Source: an uncultured Candidatus Binatia bacterium (GTDB lineage: Bacteria; Desulfobacterota; Binatia; Bin18). Taken from it: a DNA stretch of 64,000 nt. The position numbers and the translations under genes are program-made. Below, piece after piece: positions 55,156-64,000 of this stretch. Within the stretch, counting starts at the first letter, position 1. Every line of letters begins with the position of its first letter. Below the pieces are notes generated by a model, which saw only the letters and a program-made list of their open reading frames with translations, was not told the DNA's origin and did no database searches. The stretch spans positions 1,248,001-1,312,000 of the forward strand of contig OZ241744.1 in assembly GCA_965200965.1 (NCBI GenBank), in the 5' to 3' direction.

Positions 55156-56319
55156 CTATCCCTCTCGCGCCAGCCGCAGGGCCGCCTCATACACCATGCT
55201 GAGCGGCACATCGTGCTCCCGCGCGCAGCGTTTGCAGTCTTCATATTCAGGGGCGATGTGGATGCGCCCGTCCGGTCGGTGGGCCAGCTTGAGGCCCACC
55301 CGCCCATAGGGGGTCTCAAGGTCTCTGTGTTCGCGCCGCAACGCCAGCCGCTCAACCGGATAGACGCGGATGCCCAGGGTTGAGGTCTCGGCAAAAAGCA
55401 GCCCGCTCAGGCGTTCCCGGTCGGCGACCTCACACAACACCCACAGCAGAATCCCGGGCCGGTTCTTCTTCATGTGGATGGGACACAAAAAGACATCGCG
55501 CGCGCCCGCGGCCAGCGCCCGCTCCATGATATGCTCGTAGAACTCGGGGTTGAGATCGTCAATGTTGGTCTCCAAGACCAGCAGATGATCGGTCCGGGGC
55601 GGCTGATGGCTGTGACCAAGGACCACCCGCAGGACATTCGGACGATCGTCCAGCGTCCGCTCCCCCGCCCCATAGCCGACCGCCTCAATCTGTACGGCGG
55701 GAATGGTTCCAGGCTGGGCGACCGCGGAAAGAATTGCCGCGCCGGTCGGTGTCACCAACTCACTCTGGCCGTCAGCCAAACCCACCGGGAAGCCCTTGAG
55801 GAGTTCAAGCGTGGCCGGCCCAGGAACAGGCAGGATGCCGTGACGCGAGGCCACCAGCCCGCTGCCCAGCGGCAGGGGCGAGACATACACCTGCTCAACG
55901 CCCAGCGCGTGCAGACCGAACGCAGCTCCGACAATATCGACAATCGAATCAACCGCCCCGACCTCATGAAAATGAACCTCTTCGGGCGGGACGCCGTGGA
56001 TGCGGCCCTCGGCTTGGGCCAGGAGGGTAAAAATCCGTAGCGCCGTCTCTTTGACCTGGGGGCGCAAGGCGCTCGCCTGGAGCATATCGGCAAGAGCGCG
56101 AAAGCTGCGCTCGCCCTGCGGCTGCTGGACCTCAACCGCGAATTTCGTCGCCTGAATACCGCTGAGTTGGCGCACGGTCTGACGCAGGCGATAGCCCCTC
56201 AGATCGAGGCTCTCCAGCTCCTGCCGCACGGCCTCAAGCGATACGCCCAGATGCAGCAAGGCCCCGACCGTCATATCGCCACTGATCCCGGCAAAGGCGT
56301 CGAAATAGGCGATTTTCAT
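55156..56319 (-). CDS. larC: Nickel-pincer cofactor biosynthesis protein LarC
   Basis: FAGISGDM, VHFHEVGAVDSIVD, PVPGPAT, ELVTPTGAA, ETNIDD, MKKNRPG, PEYED. Confidence 0.93.
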   Translation of the reverse strand: MKIAYFDAFAGISGDMTVGALLHLGVSLEAVRQELESLDLRGYRLRQTVRQLSGIQATKFAVEVQQPQGERSFRALADMLQASALRPQVKETALRIFTLLAQAEGRIHGVPPEEVHFHEVGAVDSIVDIVGAAFGLHALGVEQVYVSPLPLGSGLVASRHGILPVPGPATLELLKGFPVGLADGQSELVTPTGAAILSAVAQPGTIPAVQIEAVGYGAGERTLDDRPNVLRVVLGHSHQPPRTDHLLVLETNIDDLNPEFYEHIMERALAAGARDVFLCPIHMKKNRPGILLWVLCEVADRERLSGLLFAETSTLGIRVYPVERLALRREHRDLETPYGRVGLKLAHRPDGRIHIAPEYEDCKRCAREHDVPLSMVYEAALRLAREG

Positions 56320-56693
56320 GGCGCTCTCTTTTGACCGGGAGCATCGCCAGACGTTTCAGACGGAACGACTCTCACTGCCACCAAGTACAAAGTCTGGGGT
56401 GTCCGCTCCAGCGTGAAGCGGACGCGCTGGCCGGGCACACAGACATCGGCCAGCGCCGGGGCGCGCAGCGCAAAACTGTTTGTTTTTGCTGGAAAGAAAC
56501 CGGGGATCGCCTCATGCGCAATCACCACCCGCTGGTCATGGCGCACGACCTGTTTCACCTCTCCATAGCCGACAAACACATCGGGCGGCGGGAGCGGCTC
56601 GCAGGCCGAGCCGCCGAGCGCAGCGAGCAGAAGCCCCAAACGCCAGACCCTCAGGCCGTCCAGACCTGAGGCGGTCCGTCGCTGGCTGGACAT
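56316..56693 (-). CDS. CusF-like OB-fold lipoprotein
   Basis: Lipobox GSAC; GEVK..VVIAHEAIPGF.PA.T..F..GQRVRFTL. Confidence 0.7.
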   Translation of the reverse strand: MSSQRRTASGLDGLRVWRLGLLLAALGGSACEPLPPPDVFVGYGEVKQVVRHDQRVVIAHEAIPGFFPAKTNSFALRAPALADVCVPGQRVRFTLERTPQTLYLVAVRVVPSETSGDAPGQKRAP

Positions 56694-56709
56694 GGGACAG
56701 ACTCCCATT

Positions 56710-57024
56710 TTACTGCATGGCCGAGAACTCGGTCGGAGAGAGCAGTTTATTGATCTGGCTGAGAATGATGCCCCGCAGCCGTTTGCCGACCTCGGCGCGA
56801 CGCGGGTCGCCTGCCCACTTGGCCCATTTCTCCTGGCGTTCGTTCAGGTCCCGGTAGGCCCACAGGTGGCAGACCTCGTTGAGCTGGCCGACCTCGGTGT
56901 ACCAGAATCCCACCGGCTTGAGGCCGTGCTCGGCTACGCCGGGCAGAATCAGGGTTTTCGCCACCTCCAGATATTCCGGCAGACCGCCAAACGCGAGCTG
57001 ATATGTCCGCAGTTCATAGATCAT
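56710..57024 (-). CDS. NIPSNAP-family protein
   Basis: MIYELRTY, GFWYTEVGQLNEV.HLWAY. Confidence 0.9.
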   Translation of the reverse strand: MIYELRTYQLAFGGLPEYLEVAKTLILPGVAEHGLKPVGFWYTEVGQLNEVCHLWAYRDLNERQEKWAKWAGDPRRAEVGKRLRGIILSQINKLLSPTEFSAMQ

Positions 57025-57054
57025 GGTCACGGCTCCTTGTCACCTCAGGCCCGG

Positions 57055-57915
57055 CTACGCCAGGGCGTTCTTGGCCAGGGCGTCCAACTCGGCCAGCGCC
57101 GCGGCTTCACCGTTGTCACACTCTTGCAGCCAGATGGTAACATGGTCAACGCCCGCGTTCCGGAGTTCGGCCAGCTCTTGGCGGGTCCGAAACTTGCCAG
57201 GAAACCCAAAGGCCAGGACCTTGATTGACTGCGGGTCACGGCCCGCCTGCTCGGCCATCTCGTTCAGGCGTTGGCGGCCGGCTTTGATATCTTCGACCGG
57301 CGACAGGACCGGCATCCAGCCGTCGCCCCACTCCACCACCCGCTTGAACACATACTGCGACGATCCGCCCATGTAGACCGGCGGGTGGGGTTTCTGGACC
57401 GGCTTGGGAAAAGACCGCACGGCCGGAAAGTCATAGTATTTGCCGTGATACTCGGCCTCGTCTTGGGCCCACAGTTCCTTCATGGCCAGGACCCCATCCC
57501 TGGTCTGGCCCCAGCGGTGATCAAAATCCCCGCCCATGATCTCGGTTTCTTCTCTGAGCCAGCCGGCACCAATCCCCAGAATAAAACGTCCGCCCGACAG
57601 CCTATCCAGGGTCGCCACCTCCTTGGCCAGCAGCAGAGGATTGCGCTCAGGAATGAGGCAAATGCCAGTCCCCAACTCAATTGTGCTGGTAACTGCCGAG
57701 GCTCGGGCCAGGGCCACGAAGGGGTCCAGAATGCGCCCGTACTCGTCAGGAATAATCCCGTCCTCAGCCCCCGGATAGGGCGAGGTGGTCTGTATCGGAA
57801 TAATCGGATGCTCTGGCACCCAGTACGAGGCAAAGCCCAGCTCCTCAGTCCGCTTGGCCACAACGGCTGGATCGACAGAGCGGTCAATGGCGAACTCAAA
57901 AATCCCTATCTTCAT
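57055..57915 (-). CDS. LLM-class F420-dependent oxidoreductase (Rv2161c-like)
   Basis: YWVPEH, LDPFVAL, LAKEVATLDRLSGGRF, GAGWLREE, PKPVQKPHPP, WGDGWMP. Confidence 0.9.
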   Translation of the reverse strand: MKIGIFEFAIDRSVDPAVVAKRTEELGFASYWVPEHPIIPIQTTSPYPGAEDGIIPDEYGRILDPFVALARASAVTSTIELGTGICLIPERNPLLLAKEVATLDRLSGGRFILGIGAGWLREETEIMGGDFDHRWGQTRDGVLAMKELWAQDEAEYHGKYYDFPAVRSFPKPVQKPHPPVYMGGSSQYVFKRVVEWGDGWMPVLSPVEDIKAGRQRLNEMAEQAGRDPQSIKVLAFGFPGKFRTRQELAELRNAGVDHVTIWLQECDNGEAAALAELDALAKNALA

Positions 57916-57949: not shown

Positions 57950-58711
57950 TCATAGCAGACCGAAGCCTCTGCCGGCCAGGGCCAGACCGAGCAGCCCGCC
58001 AACAAGCGTCAGCCCTATTCCGGTCCACCCCCACTCCAGCGGATAGGGATCGGTGAGGCGGGGGCCGGTAATCCCCGGAATGCTCGGCAAATCGCCATCC
58101 CCGCCGCCAACCTTTAGCTGGGCCTTCATCCCTTTTTCCATATGGTGCGGCACATCACAGTGGACCAGATACGTCCTGCTTCCCGGCGGCACGATAAAGC
58201 CGGCAGTTTTCTGCCCTTTTCCCGCTACCTCCAGGGTGAACATCCCCTGGTCATACAGATAGCGGGGCAGGCCGTGAAGCATCCACTGGTGGCGGACCTC
58301 GTCGGTATTGATCAGGCTGACGGTGAGCTGAGTACACGGCTCGACCGCCCACTCATGCTGATCGTAGGTGAACATCGTGCCCGCAAGCGCAAATTCTTTA
58401 CCGGCGCGGACGGTGATGTGGTGTTCGCCGGCGATGCGTGGACAGCCCCGGGGCAGCTCGTCGGTGTTCTCATTCATGACCATACCGGAGGCGTCCAGCC
58501 GCATAACATGGTGCTCATGCGGCTGGTGGTCGGTGTGGGGCTGCGCCTCCATCTGGCCCTGATGGTCGGCATGGTGGTCGGTCTTCGGCTCGGCCTCCAT
58601 CTGGTGGCCGGTGTGGCCCTGAGGCGCGTGGCTGGACGGCGCGGCGTCCTGGCTCACACCCAGGGCGGGAAACACACCCACGGCAAACACGGCCAGAAAG
58701 AAGAGCGCCAC
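57950..58711 (-). CDS. Exported, C-terminally anchored cupredoxin with His-rich linker
   Basis: Signal peptide, His-rich region, RHQWMLHG and HCDVPHHMEKGM type-1 Cu motif, C-terminal TM. Confidence 0.8.
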   Translation of the reverse strand: MALFFLAVFAVGVFPALGVSQDAAPSSHAPQGHTGHQMEAEPKTDHHADHQGQMEAQPHTDHQPHEHHVMRLDASGMVMNENTDELPRGCPRIAGEHHITVRAGKEFALAGTMFTYDQHEWAVEPCTQLTVSLINTDEVRHQWMLHGLPRYLYDQGMFTLEVAGKGQKTAGFIVPPGSRTYLVHCDVPHHMEKGMKAQLKVGGGDGDLPSIPGITGPRLTDPYPLEWGWTGIGLTLVGGLLGLALAGRGFGLL

Positions 58712-58714
58712 AAG

Positions 58715-60415
58715 CTAGACTCCCTGCAAACGTCGCACCACAGCACGCAGCCCAGCCGCCAGTCCGCCGAGCAAAAGTCCGCTCAGCAGCCCAATCAGCA
58801 CCGCCCGACCCCAGTTCAGGGTCCGGCTCGTAGCCTGTCCGAGTAGACCCGAGTCGTCGAGGGTACCCCAGATCGGGACTTTCCTCTGATAGTAGGCCGG
58901 GCTGAAGAACGGCGTCCAGTCCATGCCTTGCGTCTTTGGCCAGCCGGTTTCGGCCAGGAAGGACTCGTACACAATCGCGCTGATATTGCCGCCCGGATTG
59001 ATGCCGTTGGTGGTCACGCCCTTCCCTCTGTGGTCGTGCAACAGCCACACGCCCGGTCCGTAGTTGTGGAGACCATCGTTGACCGTCCGCAGGTGCAGAT
59101 CGAGCCGTTGAGCGGGTGCCAGCCAGACTACATCACGCGTAATCTGGGCGGCCGGATTATGCTCCACACCATCGTAATGGGTAATCCTGACCTTGTGGCC
59201 GTGGGTGTGCAGAGCAATCCCCTCAACCCCCCCGTTCAGCACGCGCAGTTTCACGTTCTGGTCGGGTTTGACGACCACTAGTGACTCGCGCATGGTGTAC
59301 GGAAACGAACGGCCGTTCAGAACAAAATAATCGGGCGTCTGATCGGTACTATCATAGCCCCGGTTGGTGGCCTCGGCCAGCAACCGGGGGTCATTGGCCG
59401 TCTGAATCATTTCGTGCAGGGTCTGATCCAGGTCCTGGTAGTGCAGGTCATACTCGCGGTCGTAGGTCTGCCGGACAGCCTGCGAAGGAAAGCGCACCTG
59501 TCCGGCACCAGGGTTGAGGGTCTGGACCCAGTTGTTGGGCTGGTTTTCCTCAACCACAAACATCCCCTGTAAGCCCATCACAATATGAACGTTGGGTTGG
59601 ACATGGCAGTGATAAAACATGGTCCCGGTCTGGCGTGGCCTCAGATCATAGGTTCGACTTTGGCCCGGAAGCACCGGTGGTTCACTGGCGACAGGCACAC
59701 CGTCGTTGCCCTCTCCAGCGCTATCGACAAAGGGGTGATCGACCCCGTGCAAGTGGATCGTATGGGGCAAATAGTGGGTGTTCTCCAAGGTAAGCCGCAG
59801 GCGGTCGCCCTGTTCCACCCGAATGACCGGAGCCGGAGCACGCAGGTTGGGGTGAGCCACATCCGTGTCAAAGTTTTCGGTTGCCATGCCACGCGTTTTG
59901 GGGGCAAAGACCCACAGCCCTGGCTCCACTCCAGGGGCGATGGCATAGCGCGGAAAGGGACCTGGAATATCCGGCGAGCGGCCGTTGAGTTCGGCCACTT
60001 CAAGGCGGATATGAATCACGTCAGGGTCCCCGTCTCCGTCCCGGTCTCCGTCTTTGACGACGGTCGTGGGGGTCAGCCGGGTCTGCATCAGGACCGCCAT
60101 CGGGACATTGTTGGTGCCTCTGACAAAGGCGGCCACCTCAGCCGGATTGTCCGGCTCACACACCAGCGATTCCTCAATCGGCACCCCGGCCACGATCTGG
60201 TGTTGGCGCCAGTCTGGATGAAGATTCGGGCAAAACGGCTCGGCCGTGCCGAGCTCCATATCTGCGGTGTCCGGCGGACGCTGATACGAGGATGCTCCGA
60301 GGGCGGCATATAGAAAGTCTTGTACAGTCTGCGGCAGCCACGAGCGCGGCAGCACCAGCACCACAGCGCCGAACCAGACCAGCAGCGACACCGTCAGCAG
60401 ACGAGGCGGAAACAT
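58715..60415 (-). CDS. Two-domain multicopper oxidase, membrane anchored
   Basis: HTIHLHG, YHCHVQPNVHIVMGL (T1 in domain 1), LHTHGH, WLLHDH; N- and C-terminal hydrophobic segments. Confidence 0.88.
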   Translation of the reverse strand: MFPPRLLTVSLLVWFGAVVLVLPRSWLPQTVQDFLYAALGASSYQRPPDTADMELGTAEPFCPNLHPDWRQHQIVAGVPIEESLVCEPDNPAEVAAFVRGTNNVPMAVLMQTRLTPTTVVKDGDRDGDGDPDVIHIRLEVAELNGRSPDIPGPFPRYAIAPGVEPGLWVFAPKTRGMATENFDTDVAHPNLRAPAPVIRVEQGDRLRLTLENTHYLPHTIHLHGVDHPFVDSAGEGNDGVPVASEPPVLPGQSRTYDLRPRQTGTMFYHCHVQPNVHIVMGLQGMFVVEENQPNNWVQTLNPGAGQVRFPSQAVRQTYDREYDLHYQDLDQTLHEMIQTANDPRLLAEATNRGYDSTDQTPDYFVLNGRSFPYTMRESLVVVKPDQNVKLRVLNGGVEGIALHTHGHKVRITHYDGVEHNPAAQITRDVVWLAPAQRLDLHLRTVNDGLHNYGPGVWLLHDHRGKGVTTNGINPGGNISAIVYESFLAETGWPKTQGMDWTPFFSPAYYQRKVPIWGTLDDSGLLGQATSRTLNWGRAVLIGLLSGLLLGGLAAGLRAVVRRLQGV

Positions 60416-60512
60416 AAGGACTATATGTATGGGGAGATGGCGGCCAGGAAAAGGGGGGCTGAGCTTTTGGCAGCCTGAGCTGGCGGTCCATCCCCCCTCC
60501 CCGACCGGCGGC

Positions 60513-61769
60513 CTAGGGCAGATACTGGGGGGTGAAGCGGGTTGGGACGAGGCTTGAGCGGACCGTGACCAACTCCTGGTCGCCGGCCGCGTTCTCAAAC
60601 TGGAACACACCGGCGATATACTGCTGCGGGGCGCTGAGCGGAATCAGGCGTTCGATGCCGAATAAGGTGCTCGAAATGCTGAGTCTCAACTCTTGAGTTT
60701 CGCCCGGTTCAATCGGAACGTTGGGGTCAACGTTGAGAGGCCCAACAAAATCGCGCGGCCCTGCCGCGGCCTGCTCGTGTTCGCCGCCGTTGACAAAGCT
60801 GGCCATCGCCATCGTGTATTTCTTCACACTGATCGGGCTGTCGGCAACGTTGGTGACCCGGACGCCCATCTCCAGCGTCTCGGTCCCCTCGTCAAAGGTC
60901 GCCCCGGTCGCCCGTACCTCGGCCATTTTCGGTCCTGATGAGATGAAGTCTGGCGTGAACCAGTCGGTCTGCTGCGGCCATCTGACCGGATAGCTCGTCG
61001 TTGCGTAGGTCCAGCCGACCACCAGCATAATAAGCGCAACCCCGGCGATCACATTCATCCACATATGGTCACGCGGAGTAATGAGACCAAGGTCGGGTGC
61101 GTCGTCGTTGGGGGGAATCTGGAGGGTCACGGCCAAGTTTGTGACTGTCCGTTTGGTGAGGGTCCAGTACAGCATCCAGATGATGCCCAGCCCAAAGCCA
61201 AGAAACGACCACCAGACGACAAAGCTGCTGCCATAGCTGCTCAGTTCAATGGTCTCGCCGCTCAGCAGGGTGACCGGAAACTCAAGCGGCGTCGGGCTTG
61301 ACGCGACTGTGACCCATTCAGCCGGGCCGATAAGGGTGCCGGTTCCGTGGATGGCAATCCCGGGATGCACATGCCATTCGCCGGGTTCTTTGCCGATGAT
61401 GACCATGCGGAACTCGTACATGCCACCCTTTTCAACAAAAAATGAGCCGATTGAGGCCTCTCCGTTGACCGTTCGCTCCTTGAGCATGAATACCGGTCCG
61501 GGGACCACCGGAATGATAGAGGCAATCTCCGGGGTGTAGAGCGTGTGCGGCCAAGTCTCCAGGATCTTGACCTTACCGGTGATGGTGACCGGGTCGCCGA
61601 CCTGAATTTCGGTCGGCGACACCGAAACATCGAAAAACGCGGTCGTCAGGTTTTTCAAGAACGGCTCATCCGCGGCCTCGCCGTGGGCAAAAACCCGAGG
61701 AACGCCAATGACGGCAGTCCAGCCGAAAAGCATCAGGCTGAGCAAGACCCGTCCGGTCGGCTTAGTCAT
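60513..61769 (-). CDS. Copper membrane monooxygenase subunit B (PmoB/AmoB family)
   Basis: Signal peptide then HGE (N-terminal His), WHVHP CuB motif, LIGP, two TMs, second beta domain (PIEPGET). Confidence 0.92.
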   Translation of the reverse strand: MTKPTGRVLLSLMLFGWTAVIGVPRVFAHGEAADEPFLKNLTTAFFDVSVSPTEIQVGDPVTITGKVKILETWPHTLYTPEIASIIPVVPGPVFMLKERTVNGEASIGSFFVEKGGMYEFRMVIIGKEPGEWHVHPGIAIHGTGTLIGPAEWVTVASSPTPLEFPVTLLSGETIELSSYGSSFVVWWSFLGFGLGIIWMLYWTLTKRTVTNLAVTLQIPPNDDAPDLGLITPRDHMWMNVIAGVALIMLVVGWTYATTSYPVRWPQQTDWFTPDFISSGPKMAEVRATGATFDEGTETLEMGVRVTNVADSPISVKKYTMAMASFVNGGEHEQAAAGPRDFVGPLNVDPNVPIEPGETQELRLSISSTLFGIERLIPLSAPQQYIAGVFQFENAAGDQELVTVRSSLVPTRFTPQYLP

Positions 61770-62049
61770 TGACCAGCCTCCTCTCTACCACCCGCAGGCG
61801 TGGTTTCTGCTTGATCCGAATGGCGTCGTCGGCCTGTCCGGTCGGCTCAAGCACCGGGAGCTTGGAGTTTCGACCCGCCGGCCACAGCACAATGAGCCAG
61901 TAGCAGGCCAGACCGAGCAGGACCGCGGTGACAACAGGAGGGGCCATCTCGTCCAGACCCATACCGTGGGCCTGCCCGGGTGACGGCAGGGCGAGCAGGG
62001 CGGCTAGGCTGGCCGACCCGAGCTTGCTCCATTGCGTTGTGCTTGGCAT
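61762..62049 (-). CDS. Small single-pass membrane protein between xmoA and xmoB
   Basis: Starts 7 bp after the xmoA stop and overlaps the xmoB start by 8 bp; signal-like GQA|HGMGLDEM, TM, basic tail. Confidence 0.7.
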   Translation of the reverse strand: MPSTTQWSKLGSASLAALLALPSPGQAHGMGLDEMAPPVVTAVLLGLACYWLIVLWPAGRNSKLPVLEPTGQADDAIRIKQKPRLRVVERRLVND

Positions 62050-62056
62050 GGCGATC

Positions 62057-62860
62057 TCACAAGGTTTTCAGGTAGCGTCTGATCGGCCACACCGCCAGAT
62101 AGCGGCCAATGAACTGGCCGATCCAATACCCCGCAAAGGCGACCGTGCCGCCAAAGACCAGCGAAACATACTGGGTTTCGCCCAAGAAGCTGCGCAGCGC
62201 GCCACGCTCAATCAGGCGCAGGTACTCCGGCGTCTGTGAGCGGATATAGGCGATGCCCTGGACATCGGCGACCGTCACCACATGGTCCATGAAATGGGCC
62301 GGCTGGAGAAAGGGCGACAGGGGCACATAGTTATAGGCCCACACCGCAATCGCCCAGACGTGCGCGCCAATGAGGGAGGTCAGGATAAAGCTCCTGGTTT
62401 TCATCAGGGTCCAGTCCATCAGGATGCCGGCCCCGACAATGGAGATCGGCCACACAAAGTTCATAGGATAGGTTTGGGCCATATCCCACTGAAAATAGCG
62501 CCCTACCCAGGTCGCCAGAAACATGCAGCAGGCGGTGTAGGTTGCCCCGGTGGGGAAACGCCAAGCCACCCACTGGATATATTGCAGGGCAGACGGGATG
62601 ATGATCGTGGCAAAAGCGGTGACTACCGGCCACCACTGGGGATCTTTCCAGTCGGTCCAGAAGTCCCAGTCACCGGCGAACAACTGCTTGGTGATATCCG
62701 CCGCCCCGGCAACGACAAAGATGGCCGTGACCCAGAAGATCAGGTCCCACTTCCAATCGATCCATTTATACTTTTTTTCCAGCAGGGCCTTGAGCTCGAG
62801 CCGTTTTTGGCGTTCGGCCTCGGCTGCCAAGTCTGCTACGGGAGCTGATGCGTCTGCCAT
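62057..62860 (-). CDS. Copper membrane monooxygenase subunit A (PmoA/AmoA family)
   Basis: AGDWDFWTDWKD.QWWPVV, RFPTGAT, YPMNFVWP, ADVQG..YIRSQTPEYLRLIERG.LRSF. Confidence 0.95.
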   Translation of the reverse strand: MADASAPVADLAAEAERQKRLELKALLEKKYKWIDWKWDLIFWVTAIFVVAGAADITKQLFAGDWDFWTDWKDPQWWPVVTAFATIIIPSALQYIQWVAWRFPTGATYTACCMFLATWVGRYFQWDMAQTYPMNFVWPISIVGAGILMDWTLMKTRSFILTSLIGAHVWAIAVWAYNYVPLSPFLQPAHFMDHVVTVADVQGIAYIRSQTPEYLRLIERGALRSFLGETQYVSLVFGGTVAFAGYWIGQFIGRYLAVWPIRRYLKTL

Positions 62861-62893
62861 GCGTGCCGCCTCTCTGTGCGGGTGATGAAGCGC

Positions 62894-63733
62894 TTAGTCA
62901 GCGGCGACAGGCTGCTCAGCCGGCTGGGCCGGAGCGCCACTCTCGGCGTCTTCCTCGGCCTTCTCAATCTCGAACAGATGGACAATGGTTTCTCCCCACA
63001 CGGCGAACATCCCGCTGGCCAGCCAGCCATAAATCACAAACGGCCAGTGGAACGGCACCGAGAAAATCTCCTCGGAGATCCATAGACTGTGGCCCCATTC
63101 GTTGGCCGCCACCGCCATACATTCCAGGGCCGCGGCCGCAATCAGCAGGGCAAACGACCACGGAAACCCTTTGTCGCGGCCATAGACGCTCGGAATACGG
63201 TAGCGCCCGTACAGATAGGTTCCCACGGCCAGGACAACGGTCAGCGGGAAAAAGAAATAGAACATCGGAATGTGGGTCGGGGTCAGCGCCGTATCACGCA
63301 CCATAGTCTGATGCCACGAAGCGTCCCAGTTCGGCCAGAAGCTGGCCTCCAGATAAATGGACAGGCTGGTCACGCCGACCAAACTCCACAAAATAGCAAC
63401 TCGTCGGACCTGTTCGGACCGGGCCACCGGCTGCCCCTCTATTTCCCGACCGGTGCGGATCAACCAGCCCAACCAGAGGCCGGCAAACGCGCCGATAATG
63501 ATCAACTCCGCCCAGAACAGCGAGCGGTAGTACAGGCTGAACTCCCAACTCGCCGAGTTCAGCCCAGCCGTGAACATATACCAGTAGTTCCAGAACCACA
63601 GAAAAATGTTGGCCGCCATGACCAACCCGCAGCCCCAGAACAGCGGCTTCCAGCCAACCGACCAGTCGGTCGGATTCATTGTCGCCCTATCGCCGGTTCC
63701 AGTCGATACCGATATTGCCTGTGTTTGAGCCAT
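62894..63733 (-). CDS. Copper membrane monooxygenase subunit C (PmoC/AmoC family)
   Basis: AGLNS..EF, DASWHQTMVRDTALTPTH (D-x3-H-x12-H), NEWGHSLWISEEIFSVPFHW; GGAGG SD. Confidence 0.95.
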   Translation of the reverse strand: MAQTQAISVSTGTGDRATMNPTDWSVGWKPLFWGCGLVMAANIFLWFWNYWYMFTAGLNSASWEFSLYYRSLFWAELIIIGAFAGLWLGWLIRTGREIEGQPVARSEQVRRVAILWSLVGVTSLSIYLEASFWPNWDASWHQTMVRDTALTPTHIPMFYFFFPLTVVLAVGTYLYGRYRIPSVYGRDKGFPWSFALLIAAAALECMAVAANEWGHSLWISEEIFSVPFHWPFVIYGWLASGMFAVWGETIVHLFEIEKAEEDAESGAPAQPAEQPVAAD

Positions 63734-63782
63734 AGCCTGTCCTCCTGTCCTTGCTGATATGCTACCTTGAATCTCCCGCGTT

Positions 63783-63998
63783 TCACGCCGGGGCTTCGCC
63801 ATGCTGCCGGGAAACAATCGTGTAGCGGATGGCGGAAAGCGCAACGAAGACCAGCACTCCACCCACAATCAGCCCCGGCACCATCAGGGCCTTATACCAT
63901 GCCGCGACCTGAATGGGAAAGGCCAACAGGTGTGATGCCTGGCCCTCGAGTTCAACCATCACCCGGGCAACATAGTCTGTGCCCTTGGCAAAGACTAT
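63783..63998 (-). CDS. Partial (3' end) PmoD/AmoD-like membrane-anchored protein
   Basis: Manual translation IVFAKGTDYVARVMVELEGQASHLLAFPIQVAAWYKALMVPGLIVGGVLVFVALSAIRYTIVSRQHGEAPA*; runs off the window edge and is absent from the ORF track. Confidence 0.6.
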   Translation of the reverse strand: MVFAKGTDYVARVMVELEGQASHLLAFPIQVAAWYKALMVPGLIVGGVLVFVALSAIRYTIVSRQHGEAPA

Positions 63999-64000
63999 CT

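Follow-up and report, generated by a model that had tools for sequence, protein, structure and literature searches.

The element examined here is a copper membrane monooxygenase (CuMMO) gene cluster of an uncultured Candidatus Binatia bacterium, encoded in a 64,000-nucleotide window (G000:C1:1248001-1312000) of a single-contig 3.62-Mb genome. Coordinates without a prefix count from the first letter of the window, and those marked C1 count along the contig. With moderate confidence, we favor the reading that this intact CuMMO converts acetone to acetol by hydroxylation, possibly along with related C3-C4 compounds, in convergence with the verrucomicrobial enzyme PMO3. We arrived at this reading because genomes of the clade to which the cluster belongs nearly always pair it with either of two interchangeable dehydrogenases, GldA or GmcAB, whose characterized relatives act on acetol. 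In addition, a small gene between xmoA and xmoB, here called x, encodes a candidate fourth subunit. The likely substrate and the role of x are the parts that we consider worth testing. The genes that carry the argument are as follows.

62894..63733, minus strand: xmoC, 279 amino acids (PF04896, E 3e-42)
62057..62860, minus strand: xmoA, 267 amino acids (PF02461, E 3e-54)
61762..62049, minus strand: open reading frame (ORF) x, 95 amino acids, overlapping the start of xmoB by 8 bp
60513..61769, minus strand: xmoB, 418 amino acids (PF04744, E 3e-77)
G000:C1:1313049-1314164, plus strand: gldA, divergent, about 1 kb past the window end; glycerol/1,2-propanediol dehydrogenase
C1:1315297-1317084, minus strand: pyrroloquinoline quinone (PQQ) alcohol dehydrogenase with a lanthanide-type Asp, about 3.3 kb past the window end

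To examine the pairing of monooxygenase and dehydrogenase, we surveyed 301 Binatia-class genomes that were at least 80% complete, with clade membership set at 72% identity or more. The clade occurred in 64 of them, and 37 of these carried GldA (at least 80% identity), 26 carried the glucose-methanol-choline (GMC) oxidoreductase of the GmcAB type (25 at 71% or higher and one at 57%), none carried both, and one carried neither. Among the 237 genomes without the clade, a single genome had a GldA orthologue and a single genome had a GMC orthologue. When partner and xmoA shared a contig, they lay within 10 kb of each other in 54 of 55 cases (GldA, 32/32; GMC, 22/23). Loci without gldA have a Tat small subunit and a GMC oxidoreductase, often together with a cytochrome c, and in one congener the GMC pair occupies the position of gldA. 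On a tree of 30 loci, chosen from those in hand, the partner state switches at least six times, and both states are found inside genera g1, g3, and g10. Two enzymes that fill a single slot would be expected to be distributed in this way; the genomes are kin and not independent. No published account of GldA/GmcAB exclusivity was found in the literature searched. The genome with neither partner (G001) is 87% complete and has an unrelated gene in the slot, which encodes a 790-amino-acid P-loop protein (L095:346-2718).

Both partners have relatives with documented activity. Purified GmcAB of strain SolV acts as an acetol dehydrogenase (KM, 2.3 uM; bioRxiv 10.64898/2026.06.11.731722), and Escherichia coli GldA converts acetol to 1,2-propanediol (PMC5697356). 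In the literature covered, acetol is the one compound documented for relatives of both. The GldA-or-GmcAB pairing singles out one candidate substrate of the monooxygenase, acetone, and involves two soluble enzymes. The Binatia GMC protein is 54 to 55% identical, over about 517 amino acids, to GmcA of the Methylacidiphilum pmoCAB3 cluster (L083) and is encoded in the same gmcB-gmcA order. Moreover, His297, His458, Met318, Phe194, and Cys187, Cys193, and Cys197 of the SolV GmcAB are kept in all eight full-length Binatia copies (two of which are the same record). Cells expressing PMO3, which is encoded by pmoCAB3 in a cluster with pmoD, gmcAB, and a glyoxalase gene, oxidized acetone and not methane or propane (PMC8630023), and the PmoD of that cluster enabled acetol formation in Methylomonas (PMC8764830). 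The Binatia CuMMO and PMO3 thus both cluster with pmoD and a glyoxalase-type gene and, in the 26 of 64 Binatia genomes with GmcAB-like proteins, with gmcB-gmcA. In the 37 others with GldA, including this genome, GldA stands in place of GmcAB, and its role is inferred. In contrast, the PMO3 locus has no match to the x family.

If acetone is the substrate, O2-dependent hydroxylation at the XmoC copper site would yield acetol. In the GmcAB genomes, acetol would be oxidized in the periplasm to methylglyoxal, with the adjacent cytochrome c as the acceptor. In the GldA genomes, acetol would be reduced to 1,2-propanediol, which the neighboring lanthanide-type PQQ dehydrogenase may reoxidize toward lactaldehyde and lactate; this is the weakest step of the scheme. 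Glyoxalase I and GlcDEF, both of which are encoded in this genome (the latter as a glcDEF operon), could lead on to pyruvate. PmoD, the multicopper oxidase, and the cupredoxin described below may supply copper or electrons, and x would be a small subunit in the membrane, with its N-terminal His as a possible copper ligand.

Several observations weigh against this reading. The GldA route requires a reduction before reoxidation, and spending NADH to reduce acetol fits poorly with a catabolic pathway. In three loci of 8 to 13 kb from other genera (L074, L090, and L102), the PQQ dehydrogenase was not found beside GldA. The GldA family is promiscuous; GldA also acts on glycerol, and a glycolaldehyde reductase is among the family members. 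The GMC family is very large: 7,999 of 8,000 candidates matched at an E value of 1e-50 or lower, and relatives at 75 to 78% identity occur in, for example, Azospirillum and Tepidimonas, so that 55% identity does not fix the substrate. All eight Binatia GMC copies lack Cys190 in the Cu-4Fe-4S motif. More distant homologues of GldA (in 20) and GMC (in 18) are found in further genomes without the clade, and because kin are not independent in the partner profile, we give no P value. The monooxygenase subunits are 29 to 31% identical to those of PMO3, branch on the other side of the tree, and are not orthologues of pmoCAB3, and shared activity would therefore be convergent. Their sister group is instead the alkane-oxidizing hydrocarbon monooxygenase (HMO), with weak support (89). 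This genome yielded no close homologue of the phosphoenolpyruvate synthase encoded with PMO3, the best matches being 25 to 27% identical. Finally, this genome encodes the methanol dehydrogenase XoxF and formate-tetrahydrofolate ligase, and XoxF is present in 47 of 51 other members of the host family.

Next, we considered the monooxygenase subunits themselves. The preliminary description of this DNA, which was made from the sequence alone, had reported xmoC, xmoA, and xmoB with intact metal ligands, and we located every one of these residues: H29, H133, and H135 of XmoB (CuB), D137, H141, and H154 of XmoC (CuC), and N211, H215, and H229 of XmoC (CuD). Homologues of A, B, and C in one cluster with ligands for all three sites place the system within the CuMMO superfamily. 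XmoA E212 is conserved. The bis-His positions of XmoB (Bath numbering) are not His, and XmoA has no equivalents of His38 and Glu100 in that numbering, residues with a proposed role. The loss of His38 and Glu100 was dropped as a clue to the substrate because HMO and pxm proteins also do without that Glu. The predicted model of XmoC (mean pLDDT, 73) matched PmoC/AmoC folds, with 7S4H_C as the best match (E 7e-10). Against the particulate methane monooxygenase (pMMO) models TIGR03078-80, the subunits scored 137, 163, and 211 bits, all below the respective cutoffs of 281, 318, and 395 bits. Scores against the bacterial ammonia monooxygenase (AMO) models NF041557/640/641 were somewhat higher and did not reach the cutoffs either. 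The subunits are therefore divergent.

The closest characterized sequences are the actinobacterial HmoCAB proteins (Mycolicibacterium chubuense NBB4, Rhodococcus WAY2/ZPP, and M. dioxanotrophicus PH-06), with XmoA 42 to 46% identical to HmoA over the aligned part. XmoC keeps the equivalents of D139, H143, D149, and A151 of HmoC, whereas its segment before the first CuC ligand differs. The A151 position is Ala149 in XmoC and is Ala in 16 of 16 clade members, as in HMO, whereas pMMO has Asp there. The A151D exchange in HmoC impairs the oxidation of butane more than that of ethane (review PMC13058606). Unlike the Binatia cluster, the HMO loci are contiguous C-A-B and had no pmoD, multicopper oxidase, or GldA match nearby in the three loci that were queried for these genes.

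An XmoA tree of 55 rows groups the Binatia clade with good support and puts it toward the actinobacterial HMO, in a polytomy with it and not nested in it. In a tree of concatenated C, A, and B from 23 loci, the clade has full support and is sister to HMO at 89, a value that carries a long-branch warning; PMO3 sits elsewhere in that tree, with another pmo-type operon of the same metagenome. Canonical pmo and amo references are sparse in both trees, and in neither did the clade group with canonical pmo. The earlier claim of a deep-branching CuMMO of unassigned substrate in a nonclassical host is borne out by the long branch of its own beside the actinobacterial HMO and by Binatia relatives. The phylogeny that the preliminary description had proposed as a check returned a separate clade outside the characterized HMO, one that, together with its gene order, was already in print. 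The clade is nearly universal in one family (48 of 52 genomes). Many members of that family also have a second, distant CuMMO with a plain C-A-B order, 35 to 40% XmoA identity, and Ala at the A151 position (for example, L061:7053-10018 in G002, L062, and L064); these have no pmoD, x, or multicopper oxidase match nearby, and this genome lacks one. Other Binatia carry further CuMMO types on the pmo side of the tree, which are taken to be TUSC-like. Genome G026 has such a TUSC-type CuMMO together with this clade, the latter at a contig end adjoining GMC, and for that reason the idea that G026 was a TUSC-type-only genome with GMC was rejected.

The preliminary description had offered methane, alkanes, and ammonia as candidate substrates and had left out acetone, which is now the best supported. 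Among the alternatives, an HMO-like monooxygenase of C2-C4 alkanes or alkenes is a real but less probable one; here, GldA, GmcAB, and the PQQ and zinc dehydrogenases would oxidize alcohols or diols, for example along a route from propene through the epoxide to 1,2-propanediol, and acetone would be a side substrate at most. The HMO sequences are the nearest characterized relatives by both XmoA identity and the three-subunit tree, the Ala at the A151 position is shared with them, three loci of family f9 have zinc alcohol dehydrogenases, and Murphy et al. (PMC8262859) favored short-chain hydrocarbons for the clade. By itself, however, this alternative leaves it unexplained that 63 of 64 genomes keep one, and never both, of the two acetol-linked enzymes. 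The conserved upstream hydrolase of many related loci scores weakly as esterase-like, had no epoxide hydrolase match, and is missing in this genome. We regard as unlikely some other small oxygenated or heteroatom substrate, such as acetaldehyde or ethanol, whose products would be glycolaldehyde or ethylene glycol and would pass on to GlcDEF. The glcDEF operon and a GldA score of 447 bits against a glycolaldehyde reductase model, under its cutoff of 550, are in keeping with such a route; no CuMMO with this activity was found in the literature covered, and the closest characterized GMC protein found is the acetol dehydrogenase, with solved structures much more distant.

A methane monooxygenase feeding XoxF, as has been assumed for sponge Binatota, also appears unlikely, if slightly less so than the oxygenated substrates. 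This genome encodes XoxF, PqqE, and formate-tetrahydrofolate ligase, and a sponge Binatota pmoA, of this clade or of another paralogue, is transcribed and was read as a methane sink (PMC9999580). The earlier statement that no methanol dehydrogenase is visible holds inside the 64-kb window and fails for the genome, which has XoxF at C1:3390708-3392519. Over 1.5 Mb separates this gene from the operon, and Fae and RuBisCO were not found in searches that included positive controls. A hand count gave XoxF/MxaF-level matches for 47 of the 64 genomes with the clade and for 14 without it. A methanol dehydrogenase was not found in the other 17 clade genomes, 12 of which belong to family f9 and are 89 to 96% complete; in f9, only 2 of 14 clade genomes have one. 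The scores far under the pMMO cutoffs and the Ala in place of Asp at the A151 position also argue against methane, and a 2026 preprint puts the clade among hydrocarbon monooxygenases (bioRxiv 10.64898/2026.02.02.703227). An ammonia monooxygenase is very improbable. The best NCBIfam scores are to AMO models, yet they fall far under the cutoffs. Also in its favor, the closest solved structures to the multicopper oxidase are 2ZWN and 3G5W, the latter a Nitrosomonas protein. The report that no hao gene is present in the window extends to the genome, where the HAO family, along with the soluble di-iron monooxygenase and acetone carboxylase families, had no match in searches run without a positive control, and RuBisCO was not found, as noted above. 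The lack of matches to the di-iron monooxygenase and acetone carboxylase families is counted in favor of the acetone reading. The only protein with eight heme-binding motifs (G000:C1:869542-872304, 920 amino acids) matches other c-type cytochrome models and not HAO.

Five PQQ dehydrogenases above the TIGR03075 cutoff are encoded in this genome (G000:C1 1315297, 1430112, 1510361, 3173227, and 3390708). All five have the extra Asp of lanthanide-type enzymes, and three are close paralogues (68 to 72%).

We also examined gene x. The protein has a predicted signal peptide cleaved between A27 and H28, one transmembrane helix (residues 38 to 56), and a basic tail. All 44 distinct copies have their predicted cleavage site between Ala and His, and Pro38, Tyr50, Trp51, Trp56, and Pro57 are invariant among them. 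We consider x a real gene because every one of 33 related loci has it between A and B and because its mature N terminus and helix show a dN/dS of 0.14 (209 close, nonindependent pairs). The 33 loci were drawn from species genomes, several of which are also in the 301-genome survey and are thus not independent of it. Of the 267 clusters found with a profile of x, 120 were listed, and all of these are without a Pfam domain; the listed clusters bearing organism names were Binatia hypothetical proteins and one Methylomirabilota record. The ESM Atlas gave no usable match. The possibility that x is a truncated copy of XmoB or PmoD was rejected, as there was no significant hidden Markov model (HMM) match. 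One locus (L100:7986-8604, genome G110) has two tandem x-family genes in the order C-A-x-x-B, with the more divergent GMC (57%) 43 kb away; such tandem genes would explain the published CAxxB order.

Right behind hmoB, all four actinobacterial hmo operons have a small single-helix ORF whose start is similar to that of x (a His-Gly-Gly motif). The hhalign comparison of the two gave a probability of 43% (E 2.5e-4), an HMM search was not significant, and other membrane proteins encoded at the same actinobacterial loci begin in a similar way. The comparison is no more than suggestive of homology between x and these ORFs. The ORFs (L057:10101-10316, L058:8078-8359, L059:8077-8373, and L082:8076-8333) are annotated as hypothetical and are candidates for an extra HMO subunit. 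In native membranes, the pMMO and AMO structures show extra helices, for which small single-pass proteins (ORFs of 23 and 46 residues) have been proposed as subunits (PMC11725843). These helices make x, by analogy, a candidate fourth subunit. The likeness is one of description, in that both are small single-pass membrane proteins; x differs in being 95 amino acids long, in lying inside the operon, and in having a predicted signal peptide.

The remaining genes of the cluster and its flank are as follows.

63783..64000 and on to G000:C1:1312355, minus strand: pmoD/amoD-family gene D1, 190 amino acids, starting 355 bases past the window end
58715..60415, minus strand: two-domain multicopper oxidase, membrane anchored, with the T1 Cys motif in domain 1 only
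57950..58711, minus strand: cupredoxin-like gene, His rich, membrane anchored, single domain (PF07731, E 4e-4)
57055..57915, minus strand: F420-dependent LLM oxidoreductase (TIGR03619)

On the minus strand, the order is D1, xmoC, xmoA, x, xmoB, multicopper oxidase, and cupredoxin-like gene. The gaps from D1 to xmoB are 49, 33, 7, and -8 bases, consistent with one operon. The D-C-A-x-B-multicopper oxidase layout given in the preliminary description was right in its genes and their place and overlooked the cupredoxin-like gene just downstream. Its novelty did not stand: Murphy et al. in 2021 (PMC8262859) printed CAxB and CAxxB orders, pmoD, and an Actinobacteria/SAR324-type CuMMO clade in Binatota, and the C-A-x-B layout was thus known. 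A genome-wide search found no other CuMMO in this genome. The relatives of the host are Candidatus Binatia, and all but four of the 33 related loci bear that or a similar title; the genome presumably falls in the Bin18 group. By hand count, D1 is upstream in 32 of the 33 (the remaining contig is too short), the multicopper oxidase is present in 29, and a second pmoD, which this genome lacks, is downstream of xmoB in 28. The G+C content of the cluster (0.59 to 0.61) resembles that of the genome (0.61), and because the clade is also family wide, horizontal acquisition was set aside. A promoter scan of the locus did no better than chance, and the locus has no assigned terminator.

D1 matches PmoD 6CPD (E 7e-8), and the aligned segment keeps the Cys and His and has the Met replaced. 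Its predicted signal peptide, mature N-terminal His, soluble domain, and C-terminal helix are those of a PmoD/AmoD protein, and it falls below detection in Pfam and NCBIfam. The multicopper oxidase most likely starts at 60415. The cupredoxin-like gene accompanies it across related loci, and a structure search found no solved relative of the cupredoxin-like protein. The LLM oxidoreductase is syntenic in many relatives, yet it is one of 66 paralogues in the genome, and its tie to the operon is therefore weak. Sigma-54 regulators are close to some Binatia loci.

Other features of these loci were observed as well. In L065:1019-7661 (G026) and L104 (G042), a TUSC-like CuMMO (C-A-B-D) stands with the same multicopper oxidase (60%), cupredoxin (54 to 62%), and esterase-like genes, so that distant CuMMO clades have this accessory module in common. 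L097:9649-10869 (G164) has a 406-amino-acid upstream ORF of about twice the usual length, the first part of which is like D1, and is possibly a fusion. Most related loci encode an esterase-like alpha/beta hydrolase (L032:4310-5155 and kin) in the interval from gldA to pmoD; this genome and L025 lack it and have an ADP-ribosylglycohydrolase beside gldA instead (partial in L025). NIPSNAP, CusF-like, and LarC-like genes at 55156-57030 trail the cluster and share its strand, an arrangement confined to its closest relatives. L047 (CAZBUD010000033.1), titled "uncultured Enterobacteriaceae," carries the full Binatia cluster with its neighbors and is probably mislabeled. A peroxiredoxin-like (AhpC/TSA) gene is split over two consecutive ORFs here (L001:17131-17799; G000:C1:1317131-1317799) and in several congeners, possibly because an in-frame stop is read as selenocysteine.

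The gene order of this clade is published and hence not new, and the clade is biochemically uncharacterized. The "Actinobacteria/SAR324 cluster" of Murphy et al. and the "Putative pmoA Binatales" clade, which the 2026 preprint describes with "Binatales" pmoA-like genes in 81 metagenome-assembled genomes, share with it the host class, the CAxB/CAxxB order, pmoD, the CuB histidines, and a position near the hydrocarbon monooxygenases. From host, layout, and tree position, without a comparison of their sequences, they are most likely the clade studied here. Both sources describe x merely as hypothetical. The words acetone, acetol, glycerol, and GMC are absent from the main texts of the two, with one occurrence of "acetone monooxygenase" indexed for PMC8262859. 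In the covered part of PMC12533140, acetol is mentioned only for an archaeal CuMMO. No published link between the clade and acetone or GldA was found in a search that did not extend to paywalled papers, figures, and preprint supplements.

In sponges, the pmoA of Binatia has been taken as a sign that methane is consumed (PMC9999580), and the substrate of this enzyme bears on that reading. If it is acetone, ketone hydroxylation evolved twice in CuMMOs, marker-gene surveys count too many methanotrophs, and a major oxygenated volatile has a widespread microbial sink that can be recognized by a marker gene. Through x, encoded as it is in the operon, the extra helices of the pMMO and AMO structures would become accessible to genetics. 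More tentatively, and as a possibility that we rate short of probable, the Binatia acetone monooxygenase may have evolved independently within the CuMMO superfamily as an enzyme of four subunits, including a His-first x that is perhaps shared with the actinobacterial HMOs. The "pmoA" signals of these bacteria in sponges and soils would then stand for a sink of acetone and not of methane.

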